From: a virus
Direction: 5' to 3' (one strand)
Virus record (IMG/VR): IMGVR_UViG_3300036772_000425
Coordinates: 202,924 to 266,923 of that record
DNA: 64,000 nt
Position numbers and translations under genes: made by a program. The notes beneath the pieces are model-generated. The model had not been told where the DNA came from. It did no database searches and saw only the letters and a list, made by a program, of their open reading frames with translations. This document shows positions 2,753 to 45,593 of this stretch, one piece after another; position 1 is the first letter of the stretch, and the number at the start of each line of letters is the position of its first letter.

Positions 2753-2756
2753 GTTC

Positions 2757-3560: not shown

Positions 3561-3946
3561 CAGTTCATCTCCTTCAGCTGCTTGGGTGTCACGACAGGGT
3601 CCACTTCTGAGGGTTGCACCAGCGGTGCATTCCCCATGCTCCAGGTGCATGCAGCGGAGGCGCTGACCACGATGCTCCAGAACCGACCGTCGATCCTGTT
3701 GATCACGTCGACCACCTCCGCCCTGATCCCGATCGCTGAGTACTCATTGCGCTCCATGTCGTTCCGCGGAGCACGGGTGATCGACATGGCGATGATGCAC
3801 GATGGTCCCTCGTTGTAGCGGGTGATCAACGCTCGTCCCAACGGACCGACCGTGTACCCTCGCCTGATCAGCTTGGCGACCAGGCGCTCCGCAACATCAT
3901 CGCTGTTCGCCACGATCCAGGCGTAGTACGTTTGAACATCAGCCAT
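3560..3946 (-). CDS. hypothetical protein
   Basis: 128 aa; translationally coupled (ATGA) to the Thg1-like gene. Confidence 0.5.
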   Translation of the reverse strand: MADVQTYYAWIVANSDDVAERLVAKLIRRGYTVGPLGRALITRYNEGPSCIIAMSITRAPRNDMERNEYSAIGIRAEVVDVINRIDGRFWSIVVSASAACTWSMGNAPLVQPSEVDPVVTPKQLKEMN

Positions 3947-15910: not shown

Positions 15911-16531
15911 TCATGCCGGTCCGGCCGGCCCTCCAGGTTCGGCGCTGCCCTGTGCACGATCGGCGGGCGGTGCCTTGAACTTGTCTGCCGCCACGTCGGA
16001 GGAACCTTCGCCCGCCTCCATCCCATGATCATCGCGCAGGGTGCTCTCGAACGCATCAAGCACATCATCGCTGTACGTTTTGGCCAGGAAGCTCTTGGCT
16101 CGACGGATCAACGTGCTCCTGATCTCCAGGAGGCTATCGTAGTTCTGGATCAGGCGCACCACATCATTGCCGAACTTCTCCACGTCGATGGAGTCGAGCC
16201 CCGGTTTGGTGGTGTCATCTCCGGTCATGGCTGCGGCGCCCGGCGCCGCATCCCCAGGATCGGGCGGAGCGTCATCGTCTCCTGCCTCCAGGATCAGGTG
16301 ACCCTTCACCAGGTCACGCCAGTCCAGTGCTTCCATCTGATCGACTGATGCTTCAGGACCAGCACCGTCGGATTTCTTCGAGTCAGTTTCGTACTGTCCC
16401 AAGTAGCGATCGACCTGTGAGTCCAGGCTGTCGCCGCTGGCACCTGATTCATGGGCGAGCGAATCATCCTCCTCACGGAGGAGACGTGCCAAAGGTCCTT
16501 CTGTGAAGAGTTCTGTCAGACGTCGCATCAC
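15911..16531 (-). CDS. acidic hypothetical protein
   Basis: 206 aa; Asp/Glu-rich. Confidence 0.45.
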   Translation of the reverse strand: MMRRLTELFTEGPLARLLREEDDSLAHESGASGDSLDSQVDRYLGQYETDSKKSDGAGPEASVDQMEALDWRDLVKGHLILEAGDDDAPPDPGDAAPGAAAMTGDDTTKPGLDSIDVEKFGNDVVRLIQNYDSLLEIRSTLIRRAKSFLAKTYSDDVLDAFESTLRDDHGMEAGEGSSDVAADKFKAPPADRAQGSAEPGGPAGPA

Positions 16532-17244
16532 TTCACCGCCTCATGAATGGACTCAGCCTTCTTGAAGCGCTCAGAGATCACATCCCAGTTGAGTTCACGC
16601 ATCATAGCGACCAGGTATGACTTCTTGTCTGTCAGGTAGTCCTTTACGTAGGCATGTTCGTGCATGTCAATGACGATCAGGGGTTGGAGACCGACCATGA
16701 CGTCCTGGCTGTGGTTGCTGACGAAGGTGTTGACGTATCGCTTCAGGAAGGCGCTGTACCCGCACACGGCCCACCCGGTACCGCACGCCATCGCACAGCC
16801 CATGAAATCAGCCTGCCAATCGGCGAAGGTGCCGAAGTCACGTTCCAAGCGAAGGTACGGCAGAGAGTCCATGTACACTTCAGAGTGCGGATCAAAGCAG
16901 TTGGAGAAGTACAGCTCGTGAAGCCACACCGCGTTCATGTTGAATGTTTCATCGAGCTTCAGGCTCCTGTACGAGCTGTGCTTGCTGTCGGCCTCGGCAC
17001 GCTGAGCAGTGTCCAGCTCTGCAGAGACCCGATTCAAGGTCTCCAGGTATCCCTTGTACAGTGCACTGTGGGCGTCCTTCGTCTTTTGCGAGACGAACTC
17101 GCTGACCTGGTTGTACGGTTTCGGTTCCGCTACGTAGGATTCCTCCAAGAGTTCCTGGCGCAATGGCCCCAAGGATCGCTTGACGATGGCCTCCACGTCC
17201 ACGTCGGACAGCAGACCTCTCGATGCCTTCTTCGTCGTTCCCAT
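16528..17244 (-). CDS. Fe/Mn superoxide dismutase-like protein
   Basis: VIDMHEHAYVKDYLTDKKSYL matches the SOD DVWEHAYYLxYxNxRxxY motif; WLHELYF matches NHxxYW; all four putative metal ligands are present. Confidence 0.7.
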   Translation of the reverse strand: MGTTKKASRGLLSDVDVEAIVKRSLGPLRQELLEESYVAEPKPYNQVSEFVSQKTKDAHSALYKGYLETLNRVSAELDTAQRAEADSKHSSYRSLKLDETFNMNAVWLHELYFSNCFDPHSEVYMDSLPYLRLERDFGTFADWQADFMGCAMACGTGWAVCGYSAFLKRYVNTFVSNHSQDVMVGLQPLIVIDMHEHAYVKDYLTDKKSYLVAMMRELNWDVISERFKKAESIHEAVK

Positions 17245-18132: not shown

Positions 18133-18570
18133 TCACAAAAATTCCAACTCGACCGCGTCCAGCAGGCACAGGACCTCAACACCGGTCGATCGAAGAAGCT
18201 CGATCGGTGCAGGATCCCTGTACAGTTGGTCGTACACCACCCTGGTGATGTCCGCGTTGATGATCAACTTGGAGCACATCAGGCACGGGCTGTGCGTGAT
18301 GTACATGTGTTTCAGCTTGGGAAAACTGAAGTCGCACTTGACCAGCGCGTTCGTTTCAGCATGGATGTAACCGGATTTTCCAGGTTCCTCAGAATCAGGT
18401 ACGTGCGGACCACCCTTGTAGTTCCCATTGTACCCAATCGCAAGCACCGCCGTGTTGTCAGCCGGCACGACCAGGGCGCCCACCTGCAGGCGCCTGTCGT
18501 AGCTTCTGCCTGCAATGACGTGTGCCATTGACATCCAGGTCTGTGCCCAACCCTGCCGCCGTTGGTTCAT
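18133..18570 (-). CDS. dCMP deaminase (cytidine/deoxycytidylate deaminase family)
   Basis: zinc-binding HAETNAL and HSPCLMCSKLI (HxE...PCxxC). Confidence 0.8.
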   Translation of the reverse strand: MNQRRQGWAQTWMSMAHVIAGRSYDRRLQVGALVVPADNTAVLAIGYNGNYKGGPHVPDSEEPGKSGYIHAETNALVKCDFSFPKLKHMYITHSPCLMCSKLIINADITRVVYDQLYRDPAPIELLRSTGVEVLCLLDAVELEFL

Positions 18571-19700
18571 GCCCCCACCAGTCCCTGGAACAATTCCAGC
18601 TCCCTACGCTCCAGTTCCATACCGAGCTCCTTGCCCGAGAACCCGAGAGCCAACAGTGGGTCACCCCTGACAGGGTCCATGTCCATGTACTCTCCGAGCG
18701 CCATGATGTTCGGATCAAGTGAGATACCGCAACCGATGACGTACTCCAGGACCTCGGAGTCCGTCAGGCCTGATGACCTGATCCGTTTCCGGAGCCGGCT
18801 GGGCTCGGAACCGTCGAACCGGGAGAGCTCCAGCAGAGCCATGGTGCTACGAACCTCTCGATCGCTGTACTTCATGCTACGGAGGATCCGATCGACCTTC
18901 ACCGGATCGTTCGTAGACAGCAGGCCGGCAAGGAAGACGGGCACGCTGCGTGACATCACCGGGGGGTTGGTCCACAGGCCTGGGATGACACGTGCCCACA
19001 AATTGTGGTCCGTCATCAGATCACAGAACAGTTCGGGGCTCTGTGCGGTCGCCAGGGTCCGGATCAGTTCATCATGGATCCTTTCGGACGAGATCCCATC
19101 CAGGTCATGCGAGAGCAGGGCCCGTGATGTCGCAGGGTCCACCTGCCAACCGAACCGTGCGGCGAACCGGATCGCCCTGAGGACCCGAAGCTTGTCCTCA
19201 CGGAACCTCTCCTGTGGGTCCCCCACGGCCCGAAGGATCCCTGCTCGGATGTCGCTCAACCCGCCCACCAGGTCCACCACCTCTCGGGTTCGGATGTCGT
19301 AGAAGAGCGCATTGCAGGTCAGATCCCGACGTTGAACGTCCTCCACGATGGTCGCGAATCGGACCGTCGGGTGTCGACCTAACGACAGATCCTCTCGGAA
19401 GGTGGCGATCTCTACGTGCTCCGTCGCACCGGGCAATTCAGTGGCGATCACACCGAAGGCAGCGCCGACCTCCATCACCGGGTGACCGAGGGACGAAACG
19501 ATCGCCTTCACATCGTGGGGTGCAGCATCGGTAGCGAGATCAAGATCCTTCGGCACCAAGCCCAGCACAGCATCGCGAACGGCACCCCCAACCACGTACA
19601 GGGAAGAACCCCGTGAACTGAAGGCAGCCGCGAGCTCATCGAGAGATTCTGGCAGGGCGATCTGAAGGGATTGACGTTCCATTTCAGCAGACACTACCAC
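18567..19700 (-). CDS. tRNA nucleotidyltransferase (CCA-adding enzyme), head domain only
   Basis: GGAVRDAVLGLVPKDLDLATDA and RRDLTCNALFYD motifs of class II CCA/poly(A) polymerases; 377 aa, no HD domain. Confidence 0.85.
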   Translation of the reverse strand: MVVSAEMERQSLQIALPESLDELAAAFSSRGSSLYVVGGAVRDAVLGLVPKDLDLATDAAPHDVKAIVSSLGHPVMEVGAAFGVIATELPGATEHVEIATFREDLSLGRHPTVRFATIVEDVQRRDLTCNALFYDIRTREVVDLVGGLSDIRAGILRAVGDPQERFREDKLRVLRAIRFAARFGWQVDPATSRALLSHDLDGISSERIHDELIRTLATAQSPELFCDLMTDHNLWARVIPGLWTNPPVMSRSVPVFLAGLLSTNDPVKVDRILRSMKYSDREVRSTMALLELSRFDGSEPSRLRKRIRSSGLTDSEVLEYVIGCGISLDPNIMALGEYMDMDPVRGDPLLALGFSGKELGMELERRELELFQGLVGA

Positions 19701-19716: not shown

Positions 19717-20301
19717 TCACTTGGGATGATCGAGACGATTGTTCATGGAGATGTGGTGAGCGAAGCACCGCGGTTCGTACATGTCCTCGCCGCCCACCTC
19801 GATCCCGCTCTCAACCTCTGCACCCGTCACATGCTTCTTGTGAGTGTAGTGAGCATCATTGCTGCATTCGGTGCACACGGCTGAACACTTCTTGATCGCA
19901 GTTGCGTAAGGAAGGATCTTCTCAACCTCCTTGAAGGGCTTGCCGCTGTAGTCGAGTTCCAACGAAGAAACGACCACGCTGGTGCCGGCACGGTACAACC
20001 AGATCAGCACTTCAGCGATCCCTGGGATCATGAAAGCCTCATCGACCGCGACGAGATGAGGTTGTTCATCAAGCACGGTCAACGTGGTCAGGACATCAGA
20101 TCCAGTCTTCACGTTGACAGCAGGCCAACGCCAGCCCGAATGCGACACCACCTCATCCACGCTGTACCGAACATCAACGCAAGGCTTGAAAAGCACGGCC
20201 CGACGACGCTGGAACTTGTTACGCTCCAGTTCAGAGAGCGTCATGGTCGTCTTCCCAGACCACATCGGTCCTGTAAACACTTTGAACGTGGGATTCTGCA
20301 T
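19717..20301 (-). CDS. tdk: thymidine kinase
   Basis: FTGPMWSGKTT P-loop, VAVDEAF, C-terminal CxxC...C zinc ribbon; start at MQNPTFKV with ATGA overlap. Confidence 0.85.
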   Translation of the reverse strand: MQNPTFKVFTGPMWSGKTTMTLSELERNKFQRRRAVLFKPCVDVRYSVDEVVSHSGWRWPAVNVKTGSDVLTTLTVLDEQPHLVAVDEAFMIPGIAEVLIWLYRAGTSVVVSSLELDYSGKPFKEVEKILPYATAIKKCSAVCTECSNDAHYTHKKHVTGAEVESGIEVGGEDMYEPRCFAHHISMNNRLDHPK

Positions 20302-20870
20302 CAGCCCTCCTTTTCGGGTTCTAGTTGGACCACGTGAAACGGTTTCCTGACTCCGGCACAGTACTCTGCAGCGGCTGACAAGGCCATGTGGATCCGTTCG
20401 ATGGGGCCCATGGTTGCATCCTTGGTCGCGAACATAGCACCCAATGCGAAAGGGGCTCCGCATCCCACCGCAGCAAAATTCTCTAGAGGACAGCCGACCT
20501 GGTAGTCCGACTGGATCACGTACACATTCCCGTTGAAGCCTATCAGGAGCTCGGCGTCATGGAGCTCAAGTTCGTTCTCCTTCGTCATGGCGCCCTTGTC
20601 GCGCTGCAGGTTCCTAATAGCATCAACGAAGTCAGTGACCATGTACGCCATGTCATCCTTCTTCGAAGGCTGATCAGGGACCGAGAACCCATACTTCAGC
20701 AGCTGGCCGACCCTGAAACTTCCTGAGTAACCGATCACCGCCTCGTCGCCGGGGGTGATGAACACCTTCTCGTCAGAGTACAAGCAGATCCCAAGAGAAA
20801 CATCCACAGCGGCGCTGTCGCCGCCCATGTAGACGGTACCCTCGTGTTCAAGTGCCACGATGCAGGTCAC
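20301..20870 (-). CDS. HslV/proteasome-beta-like Ntn hydrolase (copy 1)
   Basis: N-terminus [20 protein letters not shown] matches HslV [30 protein letters not shown] matches AIGSGGPYA. Confidence 0.7.
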   Translation of the reverse strand: [189 protein letters not shown]

Positions 20871-20876
20871 GGGAGT

Positions 20877-21458
20877 TCAGTTCCAGGGACGGCGCTTGCT
20901 CTCGACGGTGATGATCACGAAGGGCGGTGCACACGCAGCGTTCGCCGTAGATGCATCGAGAGCGGTGAGAAGGCGCTTGCGAGGGTTGCTGATGTTCCGG
21001 GTGGCCCTCAAGGAGCCCAAGGCTAGCTGGCCACCCGAACCGGTGGAATCGAACCCGTCGGCGCTCTGGATCAGCTGGAAGTTTCCTTGCAGCTTGTAGA
21101 GCTTGCCACGGTACCCGAGCAGCATCTCCCCTTCGAACCTGACACCTGAACCTCCGCCGAACGGGTTCTTGTTCTCACCTGCAGCGTCCAGGTCCACCAA
21201 GCCCTTTCGGATCGCAGGGACAAGCTCGCTGACAAGGAAGTCCCGATCGTTGATCCCACCCACCTGGAACGGGAGATGGATGCTGTGCGCAAGGGCGTCC
21301 ATTACCTTCGGTGATCCGCAGACCCCGAAACCGATATCGTCCCTGCGAAACACCTTCGGATCCTTGATGATGGTGCGGTTCAAGGCTCCGTCGGTCCCGG
21401 CCGAATCAGCACCCAACCACACGGTGTCACCCTTCACGAGACCAACGATGCAGGTCAT
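20877..21458 (-). CDS. HslV/proteasome-beta-like Ntn hydrolase (copy 2)
   Basis: N-terminus MTCIVGLVKGDTVWLGADSAG; DSTGSGGQLALGS block; paralogous to the adjacent gene. Confidence 0.7.
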   Translation of the reverse strand: MTCIVGLVKGDTVWLGADSAGTDGALNRTIIKDPKVFRRDDIGFGVCGSPKVMDALAHSIHLPFQVGGINDRDFLVSELVPAIRKGLVDLDAAGENKNPFGGGSGVRFEGEMLLGYRGKLYKLQGNFQLIQSADGFDSTGSGGQLALGSLRATRNISNPRKRLLTALDASTANAACAPPFVIITVESKRRPWN

Positions 21459-21470
21459 GTTCTATTCCTT

Positions 21471-21674
21471 TCAATCGTTCCAGTCAGATTGGGACAGGTT
21501 GGTGAGGAGCGAATCATCCTCACCCTTTCCTTCACAGATGCTGTAATTGTACAACCCACCCATAACTTCGAGCAGGATGAACTCCAGGTTGACGGTGCTC
21601 AAAGAGTCCAACTTGGAGCGTATGGCTGCCAGCGTCGCTGCCCTGCTCACCGTCAATGTAGAGTACGCGCTCAT
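21471..21674 (-). CDS. hypothetical protein
   Basis: 67-aa ORF. Confidence 0.35.
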   Translation of the reverse strand: MSAYSTLTVSRAATLAAIRSKLDSLSTVNLEFILLEVMGGLYNYSICEGKGEDDSLLTNLSQSDWND

Positions 21675-22432
21675 TCCTTCAGAAGGTACGGTGAATTCGG
21701 GTACAGTTCACGGTACTGTGCTTTGGTGATCGCATGGTGACCGGTGCGCCAGTAGTGATCCACCAGGAAGAAATGCCGCTCGTACACGTGGAGAGAGCTA
21801 ACCTGCCAGTGAACGTTGCCCACCGAAACGTTCAAATCCTTCGCAAGGCGGGTGAGGACTGTCCTCTGCCACGCAAGGTCGTTCTTGAACCCTAGGACAG
21901 CATCGTTGCTGCGCATCTGCACCACAGCATGGAGCGCACCACCCCTGATCAGGTACCCAACGGCGTTGGTGCACATGAAGTCGCTGCGCCCATCCAGGTT
22001 GTACTCTGCCCACATGGTGGGCCTGTTGTAGATCGCCTGGGCGCGCCGGCTCTCTGGGTTCAACCGGAGCTCAGCGAGGACATGCTCGTACTGAGAGTGG
22101 TTCTCAGGGCTGTACATGACCCATCCGTAGTTCGAATTGATGGTACCGTCCGTGCTGGCGATGGACTTCCAGACTGCAGGGATGTTCCCGGTGAGGTCAT
22201 TGACATTCCTGGACTGGGAATCGTACCAGGCTTCCTCACGTGCCACGTAATCCCAATCAACGAAGCCGAAGAGGGCGTCATCGTCCGTCAGGAAAGCAGC
22301 ACCGATGATTTCCAGTGTCCTGGACCCGACCAACTTCACCATCGCAGCCTCCCGATTGACAGCGGTGAAACCACCGGTGGCAAGGAGCCTGCAGAATTCG
22401 TTTCTGATGTCGTTTGAGCCGAGGATCCTCAT
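21671..22432 (-). CDS. thymidylate-synthase (ThyA)-family enzyme, probably a pyrimidine hydroxymethylase
   Basis: RRAQAIYNRP...FMCTNAVGY...VVQMRSNDAVLGFKNDLA aligns to ThyA RRIIVSAWN...PCHAFFQFY...LYQRSCDVFLGLPFNIAS; catalytic Cys and Q/D conserved; a separate ThyX is also present in the window. Confidence 0.7.
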   Translation of the reverse strand: MRILGSNDIRNEFCRLLATGGFTAVNREAAMVKLVGSRTLEIIGAAFLTDDDALFGFVDWDYVAREEAWYDSQSRNVNDLTGNIPAVWKSIASTDGTINSNYGWVMYSPENHSQYEHVLAELRLNPESRRAQAIYNRPTMWAEYNLDGRSDFMCTNAVGYLIRGGALHAVVQMRSNDAVLGFKNDLAWQRTVLTRLAKDLNVSVGNVHWQVSSLHVYERHFFLVDHYWRTGHHAITKAQYRELYPNSPYLLKE

Positions 22433-22644
22433 TCCTGTTCCGGCTCGACGGTATCAGCATCATCGTCAGTGGTTCCTGGAACTGCTGTCTCCGGTTGCTG
22501 CTGGTGTTCCAGGTCGTAGACACGAGCCTTCAGATCATCGATGTCAGTCCGGGTTCGGGCTTCCTGACCCGAACAGTCGAACGCAGCGCCTGCGCTCAGG
22601 AGGATGATACAAGTCCACATCATGAAACGTTCGGTTGAACCCAT
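22429..22644 (-). CDS. small secreted protein (signal peptide)
   Basis: MMWTCIILLSAGAAFDCSG N-terminus. Confidence 0.35.
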   Translation of the reverse strand: MGSTERFMMWTCIILLSAGAAFDCSGQEARTRTDIDDLKARVYDLEHQQQPETAVPGTTDDDADTVEPEQE

Positions 22645-22662
22645 CTTCTTTTTTTCCTTCCA

Positions 22663-23679
22663 TCACAGCCTCAGCTTCATCTTCTGAATGTTGGGCCAGC
22701 TTCGTTCGTACCACTCGACGGTACGATCGAGACCCTCCCAAAAACTGACCCGCGGACTGTACCCCAGCCGTTGCTGGATGTTCGTGATATCAGCACAGGT
22801 GTGCATCACATCGCCCGCCCTCCAGGGAGCGTCCGTCCGGGCGGCGTTTGGGTACCGCTTCATCAGTTCATCCATGATCTGCATGTTGCTGACGCTGCTT
22901 CCGCACGCTACGTTGAACCGTGCGGCCTCCAACGGTTCAACGTGCTCGGCCGCGGCGATGCATGCATCCACCACGTTGCCCACGTAGCACATGTCACGGG
23001 TCTGCTCCCCCGTCCCGTCGCTGCGCATCGGACGCCCCTGGTGGATGGCTGTCAACCATGCTGAAACAGCGGTAGAGTACGGGCTGTCACCCAGCTGGTT
23101 CTCGCCGAACACGTTGAAGAATCTCATGCACGCGGAGTCCAACCCGTAGAGCCTCCAGTACATCATGAGGTAGTCCTCAATGATGGATTTCTGCAGGGCG
23201 TAGGGTGACTTCGGATCCTTCGGATGCGATTCAGGAGTGGGTAGTGCGTCAGCACCACCGTACACGGAACTGCTGGAGGCGAAGATGACACGTGTCCGCG
23301 TGCCGCGGCACGCTTCCAGCAGGCTCAACGTCCTTGTCACGTTGGTGTCATTGGTCTCAACAGGATGTTCCACGGAGTAGCTGACCCTGGGCAGGGCCGC
23401 CAGGTGGAACACCGTGTCGTACGTGCCGGTCCTGATCCGGCGCCGTGGGGATCCGGTTGCAAAATCGCACTTGAAGAAGGTGGGACCAGCAGGAAACCGA
23501 TGCCCGGTCCAGTGCTCAGTGGTTGCCACGTCAGGTTGGATCAGCTGGCCCGGCAAGAACTCCCGGTGCCCGTTCGACAGGTCGTCGACCACATCGACTG
23601 ACCAACCCTTCTCGAAACATCGCTTGGCCAGGTTGCTCCCGATGAACCCAGCACCACCGGTGATCAGGACCACCCTCAT
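22663..23679 (-). CDS. NAD-dependent nucleotide-sugar epimerase/dehydratase (SDR)
   Basis: VLITGGAGFIGSNL Rossmann motif; YALQK (YxxxK) catalytic motif. Confidence 0.8.
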   Translation of the reverse strand: MRVVLITGGAGFIGSNLAKRCFEKGWSVDVVDDLSNGHREFLPGQLIQPDVATTEHWTGHRFPAGPTFFKCDFATGSPRRRIRTGTYDTVFHLAALPRVSYSVEHPVETNDTNVTRTLSLLEACRGTRTRVIFASSSSVYGGADALPTPESHPKDPKSPYALQKSIIEDYLMMYWRLYGLDSACMRFFNVFGENQLGDSPYSTAVSAWLTAIHQGRPMRSDGTGEQTRDMCYVGNVVDACIAAAEHVEPLEAARFNVACGSSVSNMQIMDELMKRYPNAARTDAPWRAGDVMHTCADITNIQQRLGYSPRVSFWEGLDRTVEWYERSWPNIQKMKLRL

Positions 23680-25013
23680 GATGGGTTCTCCTCGTTGGTC
23701 AGCAGGTCCATCTGCTTCATGGCGTAACGTGTCGTGGATTCGTACGAACAGCGCTCCCGGACCACGCGCAGCAGGTGAGCGTGCCAGATCGCAAGTCCCC
23801 GAGCATCACCATGATCGATGACATCGAGCATGTGACCCAACCTCTCGACCACGTTCGACCAGTCGGGCTTGACCACGAATGGGTACCCGCCGGCCTCTCG
23901 TGCAATGCTCGAATATTCATTGACATCCAACCACAGAGGTTTACAGCCCAACTCAATGCATTCTCGAGAGGCGGTACCACCGTACGTATCCTGATCATAG
24001 AGGCCGACCGCGATGTGACTGTTGCGCGCGACGAACTTGAACTCGTCCCTGGTCAACGAATCTGGGACCAGGTTCACGTACCCGTTCGGCCCACACATCT
24101 GCTCGAGCTCCTGGTTTGAGAACTTCTGGCTCGGGTTGCCGCATACCACCACGAAGTCCTGGTAGGTTTTCCTGAGCTCCGGGAGGATCTCGAACACGAA
24201 CTTCCCGCAGTTGGTGTAGTCGCTCGACCGTCCCATGCCACCGATCCTGTTCGGCACGAAGATCACCGTCCTTTTCCGGACCTTCTGCCGCCATTCAGCC
24301 TCCGTGAATCGCAGCTTATGCATGTCGATAGGCGCAGTGATCTCCTCCCGAGAGTACCCGTCATCCCAGGGCATCGACCGGTTTCGAACCGACATGACGA
24401 TGCCCTGCCTGTACACCTTCCTCATCTCAACAAAGAACTCTTCCATGGCGGACGCGCACTGCCAGAAGTTGAAATCCGCCTTGATCGCAGCTTCACATTG
24501 GCCCAACCACAAGGAGGCTTCTGCCGGGAACTTGGGGCAGGACGGCACGTCCACGAAGTGCGAATGTACGTAGAACTGGGGCCTGTACCCACCCTGCAGC
24601 ATGAACAGGGCCTTGAAGTTCCGCAGGTGCATCGGATCGTTGATGTAAACAGCATCGTACCTGCGTGCCGGATCGGCTCGATGCGTGCCGAGGTTGAGGC
24701 TGTGATGGCCGATGCCCTGGTAGTCAAAATCGTACCGGGTTGCCAACGCGTTGGGTTGGATCCAGTGCTCCAGGTACCGAACCCTGCCCGATTCGAACAG
24801 GTCTGGGTTGACATCATGTGGCGGGGTGACGACCTGGGTCTGACCGTCCAGGTTGAGACACGGACCCATGATGTCAACCTCCAACTCCGGACGAAGCTTC
24901 AGCATCTGCCGGATGCGGCCGGTGCACATCTGCCACCCAGAGTCGCATTCCAGGATGAATTTTCCGGAAGGGGTGTAGTTCGAGAGCTGCGGTTGGACCA
25001 ACAGTCGCGTCAT
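23676..25013 (-). CDS. GT-B fold glycosyltransferase (GT1/GT4-like)
   Basis: 445 aa; C-terminal domain ASRECIELGCKPLWLDV resembles the GT4 EX7E region. Confidence 0.6.
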   Translation of the reverse strand: MTRLLVQPQLSNYTPSGKFILECDSGWQMCTGRIRQMLKLRPELEVDIMGPCLNLDGQTQVVTPPHDVNPDLFESGRVRYLEHWIQPNALATRYDFDYQGIGHHSLNLGTHRADPARRYDAVYINDPMHLRNFKALFMLQGGYRPQFYVHSHFVDVPSCPKFPAEASLWLGQCEAAIKADFNFWQCASAMEEFFVEMRKVYRQGIVMSVRNRSMPWDDGYSREEITAPIDMHKLRFTEAEWRQKVRKRTVIFVPNRIGGMGRSSDYTNCGKFVFEILPELRKTYQDFVVVCGNPSQKFSNQELEQMCGPNGYVNLVPDSLTRDEFKFVARNSHIAVGLYDQDTYGGTASRECIELGCKPLWLDVNEYSSIAREAGGYPFVVKPDWSNVVERLGHMLDVIDHGDARGLAIWHAHLLRVVRERCSYESTTRYAMKQMDLLTNEENPS

Positions 25014-27164: not shown

Positions 27165-27787
27165 CAATGACCTCGCCAGTAGACACGGGTGTTGCGTTGG
27201 TAGAAGTCGGCCCAAGGCCTTCCTTGCAACAGAGCGGTGGGAGCCAGCATGACATGCCTGACCAGGTCTGACATGGCATCATGGACCACGTACCCGATCT
27301 CAACCATCTTTGCGATCACCTCATCCACCTCCTGGCAGTTCGGATGGGTCTCACCTGGCATCGGTTGCTGGCCGGGCCGCGCAGCGCTCAGGATCACCCA
27401 CTTCGGCTCCAGATCCCGGATCAGTTCGAAGAACCTGTGATCGTGCTCCACGGGCCAGTGCTCCAGCATCTCCAGGCTGAAAAGCAGGTCAACGTCTTGC
27501 AGGACAAGCGGGAGAAGCGGTTTCAGACCGCTGATCGTGGTCAGGTCGACACGCTGGAATTTGTGTTCTGGGATGACAAGCTGCTCCTTCGTCAAGGAGC
27601 AGCCATCGAACCCCATGCAAGGGACGCCCAGTTCGACCCAGCGTTTCAGGAAGTGCCCAGGTCCACACCCGAGCTCCACCACGGAATCCGGGGCTAACTT
27701 CTGGTCCAACATGTCAGCCAGCTGCTGACGGAAGTGGTGGGAGTACTTCAGACCACCGGCGTATGAAGCATGATCGTACGTCGTCAC
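27164..27787 (-). CDS. class I SAM-dependent methyltransferase
   Basis: motif I VVELGCGPGHF; motif post-II LLFSLEMLEH. Confidence 0.7.
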   Translation of the reverse strand: MTTYDHASYAGGLKYSHHFRQQLADMLDQKLAPDSVVELGCGPGHFLKRWVELGVPCMGFDGCSLTKEQLVIPEHKFQRVDLTTISGLKPLLPLVLQDVDLLFSLEMLEHWPVEHDHRFFELIRDLEPKWVILSAARPGQQPMPGETHPNCQEVDEVIAKMVEIGYVVHDAMSDLVRHVMLAPTALLQGRPWADFYQRNTRVYWRGH

Positions 27788-28320
27788 TTGATGAACTCCA
27801 TGATCTCAGAGACCTCCCTGTCAAGATCCTCATCGTCCACGTTCAGCTTCAACGTCCTGCACCTCGTGACGTTGTCAACGAAGTCGAAGTACTCATCGTG
27901 GATGGCGTCCAGGACGTGCGAGTCGATACGAGGATCAAGGTCGTCACTGATGCCGAGGTAGCTCGAGCGATGGCACAGCACGATCACCGCCCCGAGAGAG
28001 GCCCACATCTCGTCCATGTGCTTGATGATCTGCTGATCGGTTTTCCGACCGAGGACCTTCGAGTACACCCGTTCGCAGGGAAAACCTCGGTCGAAGATGA
28101 CGCTGTGCCCCGTCTGCTTCAGGACATCGAAGACCCGTGGGTCCGCGTACCTCATCTGGTTCAGGAAGGCTTCTCGCCTGGAGACCCTGCACGACAGGAA
28201 GGTGTCGTGCTCGCTCGATGCCTTGAAGTACGGGATCCCGGAGCGTCCGGCTAGTTCCTGACCGATCTCAGTTTTCCCGCAACGATCAGGACCACACAAG
28301 AACACGATGCGCTGCATCAT
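27784..28320 (-). CDS. P-loop kinase (dNMP/nucleoside kinase-like)
   Basis: Walker A LCGPDRCGKTE at the N-terminus; 178 aa. Confidence 0.55.
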   Translation of the reverse strand: MMQRIVFLCGPDRCGKTEIGQELAGRSGIPYFKASSEHDTFLSCRVSRREAFLNQMRYADPRVFDVLKQTGHSVIFDRGFPCERVYSKVLGRKTDQQIIKHMDEMWASLGAVIVLCHRSSYLGISDDLDPRIDSHVLDAIHDEYFDFVDNVTRCRTLKLNVDDEDLDREVSEIMEFIK

Positions 28321-29030: not shown

Positions 29031-30395
29031 TCATGCGATCAACTTCACCTTCCAGAGGCCGGTCGACACCCCGAAATCATCCTTCTTGACCTCCGCCACG
29101 TAGAGCCGGAAGGGTTCCAGGAGCTCCTTCGCAGTCCATACGCTCAACCGGATCGGCTTTCCGATCGGCCCTGTGACAAAGACCTGGACGTAGTCCTTGC
29201 CTGCCTTCGACCTCTTCTTCAGGCCCGCCACCGGCTCTCCGCCCTTCTTCACGGTCGCCAACACCGTGACGAACCACACCACGTCAGTCTCACCGAGCTC
29301 CAGATCCTCGATGGATCCTACGCCCTTGTTGTCCATGCGCCCGAAGATCTCCGGATCGAACATGGTGGTGACGTCCGCGGTGCCGAAGAGCTCTGACTGG
29401 AACCCAGCGAGTTCACGTTGGGTCCATTCCTCCGAAAAATCATCACGAAGACCGCGGGCCAGGCCGTACAGGTTCTTCCTGCCCTCATGCCGATCCTTTG
29501 TGGGTGATCGCTTGATCATGGCACCGTGGTCGCGGACACGTTCGACCATCTCGGTGGATCCCTTCCTGCGTGGGACCTCCTCCGTGTACGAACCCATCAT
29601 GACCTCGTACATGTGACGGTAGCTGCCGAACAATCGATCATCACCGACGCAGTTCAGGCTGTCGAAGGCCCGGATCTTGATCAGGGCTTCCATCGCTTTC
29701 CTGTTGAGCTTGCTGGGGCGCCAGCTACCGTCCTCCGCGTACAGGAGAGCCTCAAGGTCAGAGAACGGACGGTTTGCCACGATCTCCTCGACAGCCGCCT
29801 CGCCGATCCCCTTGACCGTCGTCATGCTGGGCATCATCCGTTTCCCTGGCAGGATGGTCCAGCTCACGGTGGCATGGTTGATGTCGATGGGCACGATCTG
29901 GTATCCCAAGGAACGTGCCTCGCCGAACGCCTTCGCTCGATGGATGGGAGTGTGCGACATGGACTCCATGTATGCGCACAACCACTGTTCCTCGTAGTAC
30001 GTCAGGAGCCAAGAGCACCAGAAGCTGTCGATGGCATACGCCACCGCATGGCTCTTGTTGAAACCGTAACCTGCAAAGTACAGGATCTTGTCGAAGAGGT
30101 TGCTGGCCACGGCCTCCGTGTACCCATTGGTGATGGCGCCCTGGATGAAAGGATCCCGAATCTCCTTCTTTGCCTTCTCGGCAGCGGCTCCCACCAACTT
30201 CATGATGGCGCGACGGACCTCGTCGCACTTGTCCTTCGGGAACCCGGCGACCTTCTCGGCAAGTTCCATCACCTGCTCCTGAAAAATTATACAGTTATGC
30301 ACCAGAAGGTTATTTGCGAAGAAGTTGTGGTTCTTCTTGACCTGGATGTCGTACACCGGTTGGGCCGGTTTCCGCACGATCGACCGGATCTTCAT
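29031..30395 (-). CDS. dnaE: DNA polymerase III alpha subunit C-terminal fragment (DnaE-C) preceded by a split-intein C-fragment
   Basis: begins MKIRSIVRKPAQPVYDIQVKKNHNFFANNLLVHN|C (an Npu DnaE IntC-like VYDIGVERDHNFALKNGFIASN|C); the extein contains AGYGFNKSHAVAYA, the hallmark of DnaE. Confidence 0.85.
   Translation of the reverse strand: MKIRSIVRKPAQPVYDIQVKKNHNFFANNLLVHNCIIFQEQVMELAEKVAGFPKDKCDEVRRAIMKLVGAAAEKAKKEIRDPFIQGAITNGYTEAVASNLFDKILYFAGYGFNKSHAVAYAIDSFWCSWLLTYYEEQWLCAYMESMSHTPIHRAKAFGEARSLGYQIVPIDINHATVSWTILPGKRMMPSMTTVKGIGEAAVEEIVANRPFSDLEALLYAEDGSWRPSKLNRKAMEALIKIRAFDSLNCVGDDRLFGSYRHMYEVMMGSYTEEVPRRKGSTEMVERVRDHGAMIKRSPTKDRHEGRKNLYGLARGLRDDFSEEWTQRELAGFQSELFGTADVTTMFDPEIFGRMDNKGVGSIEDLELGETDVVWFVTVLATVKKGGEPVAGLKKRSKAGKDYVQVFVTGPIGKPIRLSVWTAKELLEPFRLYVAEVKKDDFGVSTGLWKVKLIA
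30294..30395 (-). mobile_element. split intein C-terminal fragment (IntC, 34 aa) of DnaE
   Basis: blocks F/G with terminal HN followed by the +1 Cys at 30291-30293. Confidence 0.8.
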
Positions 30396-30415
30396 GGGCG
30401 CAACGGTCTGCATGC

Positions 30416-31153
30416 CTACATTTTCCTCAATTTGCTGGGATAGTTCACTGCCTCGGACGCCCATACCCGATGGACGGTGTACCCGAGCGCCTCGCCAGCC
30501 CTCGTGAACGACAGGTCGATCCTGAACTGTCGTTTCATCTTGGGGGTGAGCTGGTGCATGTCAGGGTTGCCGTGCCAGTAGTCCCCGTCGAACTCCACGA
30601 TGAGCTTGATGGACGGGACGCAGAAGTCGAACTCATGGTTGATGGTGTCAACACGGAACCGATGGATGACCTCGTCACCGTGGATCGCCTCCAACACGCT
30701 CTTGAACGCGAGCTCAGCCTCCGAGTTCCGCTTCCGAGGTTTCTGCGTCTCGAGCCCTTTGCTGATCTTTCGAGAGTGTTCATCGAAGAAACCGGCCTCA
30801 TGTGAGCGCAGGTGCCATGTCAAACCGCGGTGTCGTTTGAAGATCCGACCGCACTGGTCGCAGGCCACGTCAGTCGCCTCATCGTTCGAACTGCAGTAGG
30901 ATCTGTGGGAACGCAGTGCCGTGTTGGAACAGAAGTCCTTCTTGCAAACATCGCACCGGTACTCACCCTCCTTCCGGACGTTCTCCCGCAGTTTCGCGAT
31001 CCTCAATTTCTCCAGGTGTTCATCGGTGAACTTTCGACCCTTGTATGTTCGGCGGCGCCATTCCGACAGGTGTTCGATGCAGCATGCGACAGACCGCACG
31101 TTGCGTGTCACGTACTGCTTGTCGCAGATAAGACACGTTCTGTTCAATTTCAT
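30416..31153 (-). CDS. C2H2 zinc-finger protein with C-terminal Vsr/DUF559-like endonuclease domain (putative free-standing homing endonuclease)
   Basis: two C2H2 fingers (CDVCKKDFCSNTALRSHRSYC; CDQCGRIFKRHRGLTWHLRSH); C-terminal IVEFDGDYWHG...D..R...L...GY.V.RVW matches the DUF559/Vsr-like fold signature; 20 nt upstream of IntC. Confidence 0.6.
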   Translation of the reverse strand: MKLNRTCLICDKQYVTRNVRSVACCIEHLSEWRRRTYKGRKFTDEHLEKLRIAKLRENVRKEGEYRCDVCKKDFCSNTALRSHRSYCSSNDEATDVACDQCGRIFKRHRGLTWHLRSHEAGFFDEHSRKISKGLETQKPRKRNSEAELAFKSVLEAIHGDEVIHRFRVDTINHEFDFCVPSIKLIVEFDGDYWHGNPDMHQLTPKMKRQFRIDLSFTRAGEALGYTVHRVWASEAVNYPSKLRKM

Positions 31154-31188
31154 CTTCCAGTAGCCTTTCCTGGAAGATAGGTATCAGC

Positions 31189-32268
31189 ATGAGCGCCCTT
31201 GAGAAGGTTTCATACAAATTTGTGCAGTATGCAAAATCCTGCATCAGGCAGAACACAGAGGCTGCACTGCGTGATATGCGGATCCCATTGAACCCAGCTC
31301 AGTGGGATCAACTGGCGCCCATCATCTCAGCCTCGATCGATGAAGCTTACGCTCATGCATTTCCCGAACTAGACTCACTGATGCGATCGCCCGATAGCAT
31401 CGATCCAGAGACGTTCGACATCCCTGATGGTTTGATCGAATTCGCTGGTAAGATGACATCGCAGGCGAAGCGTAAGACTGCGGCCTTCACCATCGTTCGC
31501 AACGAATCCTTCTTCCTGGAACTGTGGTGCCGGTACTACGCTCGTGAGTTCGGAGCGAGCAACCTGTACATCCTGGACAACAGCACGTCAGACGGTAGCG
31601 TCGAAAGGATCAAGGTTCGATGGCCCGACATCAACATCGTCCTCGTGCCCAGTGTCGAAGCCATGCGATGGGCCTGGTGTACCAGCATCGTACGATGCTT
31701 CCAGAAGATCTGCCTGAAGGGTTACGATGTCGTGGTGTTCTCAGACGCTGATGAGTACCTGGTACCGGATGACGGACATGGACTGCGGGCCTACGTTGAA
31801 CGATTCCGAAATTCAGATCTGTCGTACGTTCGGGCCACCGGTTGGGGGGTGGTGCAGCAACTGGACACCGAGGGTTCGATCACCTCGCACGAACAGGTTC
31901 TTACTGATCGACGAAAGGCCTGGCGCACGAGGGCCTACGACAAGACATTGATCAGCAAGGTTCCCTTGGATTGGGCTAAAGGCAGTCACACCATTCGCAT
32001 CAACGGTGCGAAGATGACAGGTGATCCGTGCGATCCGACACTGTCGCTGGTTCACCTGCGTGACCTGGACGTTGCTATGTTCCACGAACGCTGCTTGAAG
32101 CTTGCTGCGCTGAACCCAGCCGGGCTACCTTTGGCGCACCACGGTTCTATCGACCTTCGTCAGATCGAGGAGTACTTTCGCACGCTGAAAGCCCCTTGGA
32201 ATCCACTGGCGATCCATTACGAAGGATCGCCAGTGGATGTTCCAGAGACCTGGCGCGCATCAATCTAG
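31189..32268 (+). CDS. GT-A-like glycosyltransferase family protein (DxD)
   Basis: FTIVRNESFFLELWCRYY...ILDNSTSDGS...VVFSDADEY pattern typical of GT-A nucleotide-diphospho-sugar transferases; plus strand between the dnaE halves. Confidence 0.45.
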   Translation: MSALEKVSYKFVQYAKSCIRQNTEAALRDMRIPLNPAQWDQLAPIISASIDEAYAHAFPELDSLMRSPDSIDPETFDIPDGLIEFAGKMTSQAKRKTAAFTIVRNESFFLELWCRYYAREFGASNLYILDNSTSDGSVERIKVRWPDINIVLVPSVEAMRWAWCTSIVRCFQKICLKGYDVVVFSDADEYLVPDDGHGLRAYVERFRNSDLSYVRATGWGVVQQLDTEGSITSHEQVLTDRRKAWRTRAYDKTLISKVPLDWAKGSHTIRINGAKMTGDPCDPTLSLVHLRDLDVAMFHERCLKLAALNPAGLPLAHHGSIDLRQIEEYFRTLKAPWNPLAIHYEGSPVDVPETWRASI

Positions 32269-33150
32269 GATGAAGGTGCGCACAACTCCGACAGTTCCGT
32301 TCTGCACGCCGCTTCCGCCAGCAACGGCGATCGAACCGCTGTTTTGCAACACGTTCGCCGTCACGATCAGGATAAGACCTCCGGCACCCCCGCCGCCCCA
32401 CCCGTTGGGATCGTTCTGTCCACCGTTTGCATGGATCGACCCGCCGCTTGCAACGATCAGATCGTGAGCGATAAGGGCAATCACGCCGCCACCACCACCG
32501 CCTGAACCTTGCGCTCCGGATCCACCACCCGCTCCACCGGTGATGGGCAAACTTGAACCCGCAGATGCGTGGACAAGATCTTGGACGGCGACAGGTACAA
32601 CATCTCCCATGGATGTCATGTTCCAGAATGGAACGTAGCTACCACCGTGGAACGACGTTCCGGAACCATCGCCACCTCGAGCGTTGGCTCCTAGCACACC
32701 GTTTGTTGATGCAACACCATCGGAATTCGATCCACCGGTGCTTCCACCGCCCAATGTGCCAGCTGGGCCACCCACGCCGCCAGGACCAGGATTTCCACCT
32801 CCGCCGTTCGAACCATTTCCGCCGTCGCAGGCGACAGTACCGCTGATGGTGCACAGGTTCTGAACGAAGATCCGATAACCGTTGCTGAACAGGGTTTGAC
32901 CCGATTGAACAGTCAACGTCGAATAGTACATGTCCCGCGACAGCGTAGTGCTACCTGAAATCACAACGCTACCATCACTACCGTTTCCGTAGGACGATGT
33001 TGAGTTTGAGTTCCCTTCGATCAACACCGACCCGTTGGACTGGCTCGTGATGCTGACACCGCTACCGGCGATCAGGTAAGACGAGCCGTCAACCAGTTGT
33101 GTAAGGGACCCAGAAATACCGCCCAGTGAATCGACAATGAATGTTTTCAT
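32260..33150 (-). CDS. Gly/Ser-rich beta-helix-like repeat protein (possible fibre or structural protein)
   Basis: 296 aa dominated by GGxGxxG, NGS and SGS repeats; lies immediately downstream of dnaE-N/IntN. Confidence 0.45.
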   Translation of the reverse strand: MKTFIVDSLGGISGSLTQLVDGSSYLIAGSGVSITSQSNGSVLIEGNSNSTSSYGNGSDGSVVISGSTTLSRDMYYSTLTVQSGQTLFSNGYRIFVQNLCTISGTVACDGGNGSNGGGGNPGPGGVGGPAGTLGGGSTGGSNSDGVASTNGVLGANARGGDGSGTSFHGGSYVPFWNMTSMGDVVPVAVQDLVHASAGSSLPITGGAGGGSGAQGSGGGGGGVIALIAHDLIVASGGSIHANGGQNDPNGWGGGGAGGLILIVTANVLQNSGSIAVAGGSGVQNGTVGVVRTFILD

Positions 33151-33171
33151 GTCGATAAGTATCGAGTCGGC

Positions 33172-35985: not shown

Positions 35986-35999
35986 AGAACACCCTACCA

Positions 36000-36569
36000 C
36001 TAAAGGTTGGCCCATTTCACAAGATACGCTTGAGCGTTCAAAACGAAGTCCCGATCTTCAACAACTGCCAGCTTCAAATTGCAATTTCGACACAACAATC
36101 CTCTGATCCTACCTGAGTTGTGATCATGATCGACTGCAGCGGAGTTCACATCGAAAGCTGATTTGCAGATCTCGCAAAGAAAATCCTGTGAGATCAGTTT
36201 GTCCCTGAACTCAGAATGACAAATCCCATAGTTCTTGATCCGACGAATGTCAGAACTCGTTGAAACGCACTCATCACAGTAAAGCTGGCTGCTGGAATTC
36301 AGCTTGAAGTTTTTCTTGCAGTGCTTGCAGCACTTGTCCTTCAAAGATCGATTACGTACAGCTTCGACAAGCTGCGGAGTTCTAACTTGTCTTTCACGTA
36401 CTAGTCCAAAACGATGGATAGCGTACTGAATCTGTCCTTGCGTCACCGTGAGACCGAGCGTCTCCAAACGATTCCCGATGATCGATGCCGACAATTTGTC
36501 AAGCATGTACCAAGCAACGATCTCTTGACGAAAGGCATCAAGTTTGATTTGAACTGCATTCATCTTCAA
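36000..36569 (-). CDS. Endonuclease VII (T4 gp49)-family HNH-like nuclease with N-terminal HTH-like domain; probable homing endonuclease
   Basis: AVDHDHNSGRIRGLLCRNCN hallmark plus CKHCKK upstream; the gene lies in a ~43% GC island. Confidence 0.65.
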   Translation of the reverse strand: MKMNAVQIKLDAFRQEIVAWYMLDKLSASIIGNRLETLGLTVTQGQIQYAIHRFGLVRERQVRTPQLVEAVRNRSLKDKCCKHCKKNFKLNSSSQLYCDECVSTSSDIRRIKNYGICHSEFRDKLISQDFLCEICKSAFDVNSAAVDHDHNSGRIRGLLCRNCNLKLAVVEDRDFVLNAQAYLVKWANL

Positions 36570-36572
36570 ACT

Positions 36573-37532
36573 TCACTTGCACACCTTCCTGAAGTACTCG
36601 ATCGACAGGTCCAGCCCTTCTTCGAGCTGTACCCTGGCATCCCAACCCATGTAGGCTCGAGCCAATGAGGTGTCCGGGCGGCGCTGCAGCGGATCATCGC
36701 ACGGCAACGACCTGAACGTGATACCAACACCGAAGCGCTTGGCGACATTTTGGGCCAGCTCAAGGATCGTGAACTCGTTCGGATTGCCCATGTTCACCGG
36801 TCCGCCCGGATTCTTGGGTAGTTCACCCAAGGCCACGATGCCCCTGATCAGGTCGTCTACGTAGCAGAAGGAACGTGTCTGCGATCCGTCCCCGTAGACC
36901 GTGAGATCCTGGCCCCTGATGCCCTGGCAGATGAAGTTGCTGATCACTCGACCATCGTCGGGGTCCATGTTGGGACCGTAGGTGTTGAAGATCCTGACGA
37001 GCCGAGCGTCTGTTCCGTGCTTGTGAAGGTAGTCGTAGCACAGTGACTCAGCGGCGCGCTTCCCTTCATCGTAGCACGAACGTGGACCGTAGCTGTTGAC
37101 GCTGCCGCGGTACGCCTCAGCCTGTGGGATCAGTTCAGGGTCACCGTACACCTCAGAGGTCGATGCATGGACGATCCTGGCGCCCCTGTCGCCAGCAAAG
37201 TCCAGGATGTTCTTGGTGCCTACCACGCACGTCATCAACGTTTCGATCGGGATCCTCTGGTAGATGGGCGGCGAGGCCGGACACGCGAAGTTGTACGCGA
37301 CGTCAAGGCATCGGATCTTCTTCAAGGATCTCTGCCATCCTGTACTGGCAGAGATGTCGCCCTCTACCATGGTGAAGTTCGGATGTTCGCACAGGGCACG
37401 GTAGTGCGCGCTGCTACGGGTCGATGAACAGAAGTTGTCGATTCCAAAGACAAGATCTCCCTGGACAAGGTGATGCATCGACAGGTGCGATCCGAGGAAC
37501 CCAGCGGCGCCGGTGACCAGCACCCGCATCAT
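36573..37532 (-). CDS. UDP-glucuronate decarboxylase/UDP-xylose synthase-like SDR (NAD-dependent epimerase/dehydratase)
   Basis: VLVTGAAGFLGSHL; SEVYGDP; YDEGK (YxxxK); C-terminal QRRPDTSLARAYMGW typical of the UXS/ArnA-like subfamily. Confidence 0.75.
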   Translation of the reverse strand: MMRVLVTGAAGFLGSHLSMHHLVQGDLVFGIDNFCSSTRSSAHYRALCEHPNFTMVEGDISASTGWQRSLKKIRCLDVAYNFACPASPPIYQRIPIETLMTCVVGTKNILDFAGDRGARIVHASTSEVYGDPELIPQAEAYRGSVNSYGPRSCYDEGKRAAESLCYDYLHKHGTDARLVRIFNTYGPNMDPDDGRVISNFICQGIRGQDLTVYGDGSQTRSFCYVDDLIRGIVALGELPKNPGGPVNMGNPNEFTILELAQNVAKRFGVGITFRSLPCDDPLQRRPDTSLARAYMGWDARVQLEEGLDLSIEYFRKVCK

Positions 37533-45342: not shown

Positions 45343-45593
45343 TCATAGCTCGGTTCAGAGTATTCCATGTGTTCTTTGCACGTACGCCGGTACGCTTCAA
45401 TGAAAGACTCAGCGTCGCTGGGCCTTGCCGGAAGATCCAAGATCATCTCAGGGCCCACCTTGGGCCTGTAGGTGCACTTGACCACGTACGGATGCTCGGA
45501 GCTCCTCTCGAAATGGTGTTGACCTGAATCAACCTTGATGATCTTCCCTTGCACAACGATCAATCCCAAGCTCATTCGAACATCCTCTGCCAT
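45339..45593 (-). CDS. hypothetical protein
   Basis: 84-aa ORF. Confidence 0.4.
   Translation of the reverse strand: MAEDVRMSLGLIVVQGKIIKVDSGQHHFERSSEHPYVVKCTYRPKVGPEMILDLPARPSDAESFIEAYRRTCKEHMEYSEPSYE

Follow-up and report, generated by a model that had tools for sequence, protein, structure and literature searches.

An acidic/basic pair of predicted proteasome-β-like threonine hydrolases encoded among nucleotide-metabolism genes of a large phage

A 64-kb stretch of viral DNA (64,000 nucleotides of the IMG/VR record IMGVR_UViG_3300036772_000425, referred to as the window) carries two adjacent genes, here named A and B, whose products are paralogous proteins of predicted proteasome-β fold, each with the full set of threonine-protease active-site residues. 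On balance, and with guarded confidence, we read A and B as the two subunit types of an ATP-independent ring peptidase that resembles BPH, the Betaproteobacteria proteasome homolog (PDB 5ovs, 5ovt, and 5ovu; Fuchs et al., 2018, PMC5777263), and that is expressed together with a nucleotide-metabolism operon. Both proteins would belong to a compact, propeptide-free and unfoldase-independent branch of the superfamily, BPH-like in structure and AAH-like in sequence. AAH is one of the group I proteasome-like homologs of Fuchs, Alva and Lupas (2021), and is present in phages (PMC8665760).

The two open reading frames (ORFs) lie on the minus strand (Table 1) and share the N-terminus MTCIV. BLASTP confirms the initial annotation in treating them as adjacent paralogs (31% identical across 195 columns, E 1e-25), of which A is the acidic copy, with an isoelectric point (pI) of 4.6, and B the basic copy (pI 9.1). 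The stop codon of B and the GTG start of A are separated by 6 nt, and the stop codon of A overlaps the ATG of the thymidine kinase gene by 1 nt (TGATG). The GTG start is taken as correct because the MTCIV N-terminus is kept in 98% of 120 A orthologs. The database gene call for A (P0001, 175 aa) begins instead at the internal Met15, dropping the part of A at 20829..20870 (-) and deleting Thr1. Since this automated call stripped the nucleophile from A, genes of the family can be mis-annotated in databases, and truncations of the same type may hide active sites in other entries.

Both proteins match the PHROG 1040 family, “peptidase HslV family” (A, 3e-23; B, 1.3e-15). The Pfam Proteasome model (PF00227) gives 13.8 bits for A, under its gathering score of 22.4, and no match for B, and some orthologs carry a precomputed match to it. 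As both copies fall below this threshold, their membership of the superfamily rests on the PHROG, profile and fold evidence. Compared with PDB sequences, the family profile finds BPH first (5ovu, 8.8e-9), followed by HslV (4e-7 and weaker) and then by 20S proteasome β subunits. AlphaFold (AF2) models, built from alignments of ~95 sequences, reach a mean predicted local confidence (pLDDT) of 95.4 (A) and 92.8 (B), and each is an N-terminal-nucleophile (Ntn) sandwich of two β-sheets and four helices (H1-H4), with helix H2 at residues 73-92 in A and 71-89 in B. Foldseek searches of the PDB place the Thiobacillus BPH (5ovs) on top for A (template-modelling score, TM, 0.80; E 8e-13) and for B (TM 0.74), HslV second (TM about 0.65-0.73) and proteasome β subunits third, at a probability of 1.00 for all three. 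These fold and profile searches, together with the catalytic residues, bear out the initial assignment to the proteasome-β/HslV-like hydrolases with an N-terminal threonine. Its narrower comparison with HslV holds for the fold, which is HslV-like, and fails for orthology: A scores 23.4 and 21.5 bits against the NCBIfam HslV equivalogs (NF003964 / TIGR03692), for which the cut-offs are 137 and 158, B has no NCBIfam match, and BPH is the nearer relative of both. No other Ntn family (class II amidotransferases, acylases) was found among the Pfam, NCBIfam, PDB, and Foldseek matches of A and B, so that neither has its best match in a non-proteolytic Ntn family. The context of the nucleophile is likewise intact, as the residue following Met is Thr in both proteins, not Cys1 or Ser1, with a Cys at position 2.

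The catalytic residues are conserved in both copies. Of the ~120 orthologs of each paralog, 96-100% retain Thr1, Asp17, Lys34 (the counterpart of Lys33), the Gly of the oxyanion hole (G46 for A, G44 for B), and the G-x-G motif; in B this covers T1, C2, D17, K34, G44, and G139-S-G141, each kept in 96-100% of 121 orthologs. Cys2 is almost invariant, as it is in BPH. The GSGG-like segment that had been ascribed to the pair is present in B (STGSGGQ); A reads VGCGAP at this place, with GCG where B carries GSG. The position equivalent to proteasome Ser129 is Ser in 116 of 121 B orthologs, while among 121 A orthologs it is Cys in 85 and Ser in 24. With this full catalytic set, both proteins look competent and neither resembles a dead subunit of the α type, and the suggestion of one active and one inactive subunit was rejected, since the set is kept in the orthologs of both copies. 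Both proteins start directly at MTC, without a propeptide. The pore loop (H2 to S7) of A comprises 15 aa. That of B has 18 aa and is Gly-rich and net-acidic (DAAGENKNPFGGGSGVRFEGE); the net charge of the loop is about -3 in both clades.

The absence of a nearby AAA+ unfoldase, another point of the initial annotation, stands for the whole window: none was found among its Walker-A ORFs, of which one short plus-strand ORF (47229..47795) lay outside the check, or among ten further large ORFs, nor in about 20 syntenic loci of relatives. Besides that ORF, Walker-A motifs occur in a pair of small kinase-like proteins, thymidine kinase, a polynucleotide kinase-phosphatase (PNKP) and DnaB.

The mechanism proposed for the pair starts with the host methionine aminopeptidase, which would remove Met1 and expose the Thr1 nucleophile. 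Asp17 and Lys34 would complete the triad and the conserved Gly would provide the oxyanion hole, while Ser in B, or Cys in A, would occupy the Ser129 position. The subunits would then form double-ring barrels, whose long acidic pore loops may gate entry, as in BPH, and the particle would cleave peptides or unfolded polypeptides without ATP while infection is in its early, metabolic phase. The acidic (A) and basic (B) subunits would co-assemble in mixed or stacked rings, offering two specificities.

Homologs are widespread. The database clusters stand at 1603 for A and 529 for B, and relatives of the family occur on >570 IMG/VR contigs. About 200 cultured phages carry a homolog, among them T5-like Epseptimavirus, E. 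coli jumbo phages, and viruses of Vibrio, Aeromonas, Geobacillus, Moorella, and Methanothermobacter. In bacterial genomes, a scan made with an A-only alignment yields 227 loci, the best 80 of which are at most 48% identical; these 80 belong mostly to alpha-proteobacteria (Azospirillum, Rhizobium, Mesorhizobium), Actinobacteria (Streptomyces, Actinoplanes, Frankia), Firmicutes and Dehalococcoidia. Bacterial relatives that share 40-48% identity with A are found in Azospirillum, Rhizobium, Streptomyces, Actinoplanes, Frankia, and Paenibacillus. The gene is single-copy at all 80 of these bacterial loci and in nearly all viral relatives outside the clade that bears the pair.

Only one clade of uncultured phages, whose contigs measure 90-370 kb, has the B-A tandem, and there the gene order (445-aa protein, epimerase, ThyA-like protein, B, A, thymidine kinase, CCA-adding enzyme, dCMP deaminase) is syntenic down to ~45% identity of A. 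The group of B-type genes is sharply bounded: 21 IMG/VR loci are at least 45% identical to B and the next-best reach at most 37%. Fourteen of these loci have the B-A tandem, one has three copies, one is ended by the contig edge and five have B only. Across the clade, the conservation of both copies is about equal to that of the neighbouring thymidine kinase and dCMP deaminase. The window phage itself has no near-identical DNA match that could be found among cultured phages, no cultured phage has a DnaE more than 26% identical to its own, and by these sequence comparisons it is an uncultured phage. The source contig measures 168.7 kb; another contig, of 340 kb, encodes an identical copy of the B protein.

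The relationship between the copies was approached with a bootstrapped neighbour-joining (NJ) tree, a distance-based method, rooted on BPH. B is monophyletic (87% bootstrap) and lies outside the radiation that comprises A, the single-copy viral and bacterial homologs, and those of cultured phages. Mean NJ distances are 1.40 between A and B, 1.41 between B and the single-copy homologs and 0.90 between A and the single-copy homologs, indicating that A is an ordinary AAH-like subunit and B an old or fast-evolving paralog. A recent duplication of A into B within the lineage is unsupported, as B is equally far from A and from the single-copy proteins; the NJ method leaves a fast-evolving B possible. 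Additional copies occur in other places. One member of the pair-bearing clade (L189, 3424..7164) has three copies in the order A-like, B, A-like, and on an unrelated viral contig (L040, 5001..6220) two A-like genes lie side by side and encode proteins that are both basic (pI 9.1 and 9.5). Phages have therefore duplicated this gene repeatedly.

Several features of the pair-bearing clade bear on whether A and B act together. In 12 of 15 pairs the stop codon of B and the start codon of A are spaced by -4 to +6 nt, with overlapping codons in several, and this tight arrangement implies translational coupling. The pI averages 5.11±0.78 for A (n=91) and 8.22±0.99 for B (n=121), compared with 6.6±1.6 for single-copy relatives; in all 12 IMG/VR pairs checked, A falls at 4.6-5.5 and B at 6.9-9.5. 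Invariant residues specific to one paralog cluster in helix H1 (S50-F-R-x-G-Q-L...Y59 in A, P49-K-V-M-D-A...H57 in B), and invariant residues that differ between the clades are also found at positions that line the S1 pocket by alignment. Most likely, judging from these gene and protein sequences, A and B co-assemble as mixed or stacked rings with two kinds of active site, and either would probably be able to work alone as well. The hetero-oligomeric ring put forward in the initial annotation is thus plausible, given the coupled stop and start codons and the opposite charges, and it is not obligatory. Three relatives have B only in the same slot between the ThyA-like and thymidine kinase genes (L178, L192, and L193), two further relatives have B only (L183 and L188), and one has A only in that slot (L018). 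Because such genomes exist, an obligate pair was rejected.

The same genomes favour a different arrangement, in which A and B form separate homo-oligomeric barrels with different substrate preferences, that is, two enzymes encoded in one operon. HslV and BPH are homo-oligomers (PMC5777263), the single copy is the rule outside the clade, and the predicted S1-lining positions differ between A and B. However, coupled or overlapping stop and start codons, and opposite net charges that hold strictly and clade-wide, are typical of the subunits of one complex, and we regard separate barrels as a possible but distinctly less probable organization.

Several points weigh against a hetero-oligomeric ring peptidase. 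BPH showed no activity on standard peptides or casein (PMC5777263), and connectase, which belongs to the superfamily, acts as a ligase (PMC8665760). No proteolytic activity has been reported for any phage member or AAH-type protein, and in the literature on HslV-like or proteasome-like proteins of phages only annotation-level mentions, and no experimental work, were found. Given an inert BPH and no reported activity for the phage and AAH members, we infer a “peptidase” from the active-site architecture alone. The structure models are those of monomers, from which ring assembly and hetero-oligomerization are extrapolated, and the Ser129, S1, and pore-loop residues were mapped by alignment and AF2 secondary structure. 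The ATPase check covers 64 kb of a genome that possibly reaches ~340 kb. Lastly, the B-only and A-only relatives occupy the very slot in which the pair resides.

Table 1. Features of the window. Positions are counted from the first nucleotide of the window.
Feature	Coordinates	Strand	Remarks
Paralog B, 193-aa proteasome-β-like Thr-Ntn hydrolase	20877..21458	-	ATG start, ORF list
Paralog A, 189-aa proteasome-β-like Thr-Ntn hydrolase	20301..20870	-	GTG start, ORF list
Thymidine kinase	19717..20301	-	Pfam TK 1.5e-34; directly downstream of A; syntenic in relatives
CCA-adding enzyme	18567..19700	-	Pfam PolyA_pol 6.9e-28; downstream part of syntenic block; tRNA repair
dCMP deaminase	18133..18570	-	Pfam dCMP_cyt_deam_1 4.7e-19; downstream part of syntenic block
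67-aa ORF between ThyA-like gene and B	21471..21674	-	No family match; no counterpart in relative L005
ThyA-family protein, possibly pyrimidine hydroxymethylase	21671..22432	-	Pfam Thymidylat_synt 1.5e-16; upstream of B; syntenic
NAD-dependent epimerase/dehydratase	22663..23679	-	Pfam Epimerase 8.7e-50; upstream part of syntenic block
445-aa protein	23676..25013	-	No Pfam, PHROG, or NCBIfam match; upstream part of syntenic block
Small kinase-like protein	2204..2797		Walker-A ORF
Thg1-like 3'-5' polymerase	2757..3650	-	tRNA repair
Fe/Mn superoxide dismutase C-terminal domain protein	16528..17244	-	
Small kinase-like protein	27784..28320		Walker-A ORF
DnaE, second piece	29031..30464	-	Intein C-terminal splicing domain, then finger and HHH domains
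Zinc-finger-like ORF	30416..31153		One of three ORFs between the DnaE pieces
DnaE, PHP/polymerase core	33172..36015	-	
Second epimerase	36573..37532		
RNA ligase	45572..46489	-	tRNA repair
Short ORF	47229..47795	+	Walker-A ORF
Polynucleotide kinase-phosphatase	48695..49702	-	tRNA repair; Walker-A ORF
ThyX and thymidylate kinase candidates	54124..55727	-	

The window represents a one-strand region, early or metabolic in character, from the genome of a large phage. Its replication genes include a DnaE split by an intein, DnaB and a FEN-type exonuclease; sequence features alone point to a ribonucleotide reductase, ThyX, and a putative thymidylate kinase with an N-terminal P-loop. The placement of the pair between thymidine kinase and the ThyA-family gene, as first described, is right on the thymidine kinase side and needs amending on the other, where the 67-aa ORF separates the ThyA-like gene from B. 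This ORF is probably not part of the system. The ThyA-like protein is far under the cut-offs of the NCBIfam ThyA equivalogs, and the block that it forms with the epimerase and the 445-aa protein (21671..25013) looks like a pyrimidine hydroxymethylase combined with a sugar-transfer module, making it a candidate DNA base hypermodification system.

This setting raises the question of whether the pair is linked to nucleotide metabolism. In 8 of 14 sampled lineages of large lytic cultured phages, a count made without a rigorous null model, nucleotide-metabolism genes are found no more than ~3 kb from the single-copy homolog, as they are from the pair in its own clade. The homologs of Eps7 and Geobacillus E3 are near ThyA and DHFR, that of SP27 near cytidine deaminase, that of PhiF1 near NrdD, that of Vibrio henriette near thymidine kinase and that of Ochrobactrum OC near MazG. 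A dCMP deaminase gene is found directly upstream of the homolog in Xanthomonas phage Xoo-sp13 (L009, 2797..4079, abutting) and Salicola SCTP-2 (L248, 2129..3567), two unrelated jumbo phages in which this position echoes the dCMP deaminase gene 2 kb downstream of the pair. In the wider family, nucleotide-metabolism neighbours were seen at only 2 of 73 and 2 of 42 viral loci and at 1 of 80 bacterial loci, and a family-wide tie was rejected on these counts. Clustering of the flanking ORFs yielded no universal neighbour or partner gene, only lineage-specific ones; in 23 loci a ~570-aa protein, a possible terminase by its N-terminal sequence, is encoded near the homolog. As the association fails in the wider family, the context is best understood as expression with an early metabolic module, not as chemistry directed at nucleotides.

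A more specific proposal, that A and B form an unfoldase-free, two-subunit acidic/basic viral proteasome-like particle whose job is tied to the co-transcribed module for pyrimidine deoxynucleoside triphosphates, is speculative, and we hold it with low confidence. If true, this job could be the removal of a nucleotide-competing host enzyme or of a defence protein, or the processing of a phage enzyme.

The nucleotide context can also be read as a sign that A and B are not proteases at all, acting instead as a connectase-like ligase or transpeptidase, or as an amidohydrolase on a metabolite or a DNA base modification connected with the adjacent pyrimidine genes. The fold is able to ligate, as connectase shows (PMC8665760), standard protease substrates are left untouched by BPH (PMC5777263), the genes ThyA, DHFR, deaminase, thymidine kinase, NrdD, or MazG recur beside the homolog in the eight phage lineages and the pair clade, and the pair itself sits inside the block that resembles a base-modification module. 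Nevertheless, the nucleotide association vanishes in the wider family, which lacks a universal neighbour, and both the active site and the predicted substrate-binding strand follow the proteasome pattern for peptide binding. Helices H1 and H2 are present in A and B and absent from connectase. The homolog is also carried by T5-like phages, for which DNA hypermodification is not known. A non-proteolytic role is doubtful.

Still less probable is that the phage subunits dock on the HslU (or ClpX) of the host, replacing HslV and redirecting ATP-dependent degradation. The public annotation name “HslVU peptidase subunit,” the HslV-like fold (TM about 0.7) and the lack of a phage ATPase nearby speak for such docking. 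However, A and B are far under the HslV equivalog cut-off and nearer in structure and profile to BPH, which lacks the HslU-interface residues, and their pore loops are long and acidic in place of the short, basic loop through which HslV responds to HslU (PMC5777263). Furthermore, they have close relatives in Actinobacteria, a phylum absent from the HslV list in Table 1 of PMC8665760.

The role in virion maturation that had been considered at the outset, which would make A and B a prohead protease, is very unlikely: maturation proteases are frequent among phage peptidases and some small prophage-like loci have a single-copy homolog near the ~570-aa possible large terminase, but no structural genes flank the pair in the window, where the operon is one of early metabolic type (nucleotide metabolism and tRNA repair), and single-gene homologs occupy ordinary bacterial chromosomal contexts (e.g., 17 Azospirillum loci). 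The fold of A and B is, moreover, unlike that of known prohead proteases.

Other features of the window deserve a brief description. A full tRNA repair kit, all on the minus strand, consists of a Thg1-like 3'-5' polymerase, the CCA-adding enzyme, an RNA ligase, and the PNKP, and may counter host anticodon nucleases. The dnaE gene is divided into a piece for the PHP/polymerase core and a second piece, which begins with an intein C-terminal splicing domain; three ORFs lie between them, and the arrangement (29031..36015) may represent either a split intein or one that was invaded. A second epimerase is encoded apart from the syntenic block. Distant relatives (L095 and L096) have the protein with an Fe/Mn superoxide dismutase C-terminal domain at the same position of their syntenic block.

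Among known systems, BPH offers the closest comparison with the pair. It is the top structural and profile match of both proteins and shares with them the propeptide-free MTC start, the Thr1/Asp17/Lys triad, the oxyanion Gly, the long acidic pore loop, and the lack of a partner unfoldase. In BPH, removal of Met exposes Thr1, on which epoxomicin forms the classical adduct (PMC5777263). By contrast, BPH is only 17-24% identical to A and B, lies in the NJ tree at a distance of about 2.4-2.7 from all A, B, and single-copy sequences, and is a homo-tetradecamer made from one cellular gene in stress-regulated operons. The pair described here, known from its genes alone, consists of two diverged, co-translated phage paralogs of opposite charge in a nucleotide-metabolism operon. 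A and B are thus probably a sister family of BPH, not BPH itself.

AAH resembles the pair in its compact size (~190 aa), its helices H1-H4, the absence of S12 and H5, and its retained catalytic residues. It is distributed over Caudoviricetes, alpha-proteobacteria, Actinobacteria, and Firmicutes, and the same groups supply the relatives that share 40-48% identity with A. The likeness in the NJ tree is restricted to A, which nests among bacterial relatives, whereas B is placed outside the radiation. The assignment to AAH was made by size, architecture, and distribution, not by the AAH reference sequence WP_035979212. Another proteasome-like type, of about 140 residues and without helix H2, is unlike A and B, which have 189 and 193 aa and retain H2. 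No AAA+ partner and no informative gene context were found for AAH, and its function was left open (PMC8665760). AAH is described there as encoded by single genes, while in the window the AAH-like gene is coupled to a basic paralog that forms its own clade.

HslV (ClpQ) has in common with A and B the fold (TM 0.6-0.7), a Thr1 exposed after Met removal, the G-S-G motif and the public annotation name. It differs in that A and B score under the curated HslV models, the window encodes no HslU, and their pore loop is long and acidic; that of HslV is short and basic and responds to HslU (PMC5777263; PMC8665760).

Tandem genes of this kind have also been annotated in cultured phages. The adjacent gp210 and gp211 of Aeromonas phage 2L372D (L244, 3001..4454) are both annotated as “peptidase HslV family,” have an N-terminal Thr and lack HslU. 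However, gp211 (294 aa) is an HslV/PPH-like protein of the MTTIA type with a long acidic C-terminal extension, unrelated to B (E 0.02), and both tandem proteins are acidic, so that they represent an independent tandem of two different proteasome-like genes. The Salmonella jumbo phage pSal-SNUABM-04 has two HslV genes without HslU (PMC7823757), which, unlike A and B, are located at separate loci. A further candidate was discarded: the 114-aa acidic “nucleophile aminohydrolase” next to the homolog of Vibrio phage R16F (L247, 3001..3989) has no Ntn domain by sequence.

Unfoldase-less proteasome homologs of phages and bacteria (PMC8665760; PHROG 1040) and annotated tandem “HslV family” genes in cultured phages are therefore already known, and no description was found of a conserved, translationally coupled combination of an acidic AAH-like subunit with a distinct clade of basic paralogs. 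Phages commonly carry proteasome-like genes with no accompanying ATPase, and the pair refines this known puzzle without opening a long-standing question by itself. The duplication of catalytic-fold subunits within one barrel, proposed here for A and B, has a parallel in the 20S proteasomes with two β-type subunits (e.g., Sulfolobus acidocaldarius, PDB 6z46), which differ in having α rings, propeptides, and AAA+ partners and are 15-18% identical to A and B. The A/B lineage is a natural entry for biochemistry, and could reveal whether a virus encodes a minimal hetero-oligomeric barrel of the proteasome-like kind.

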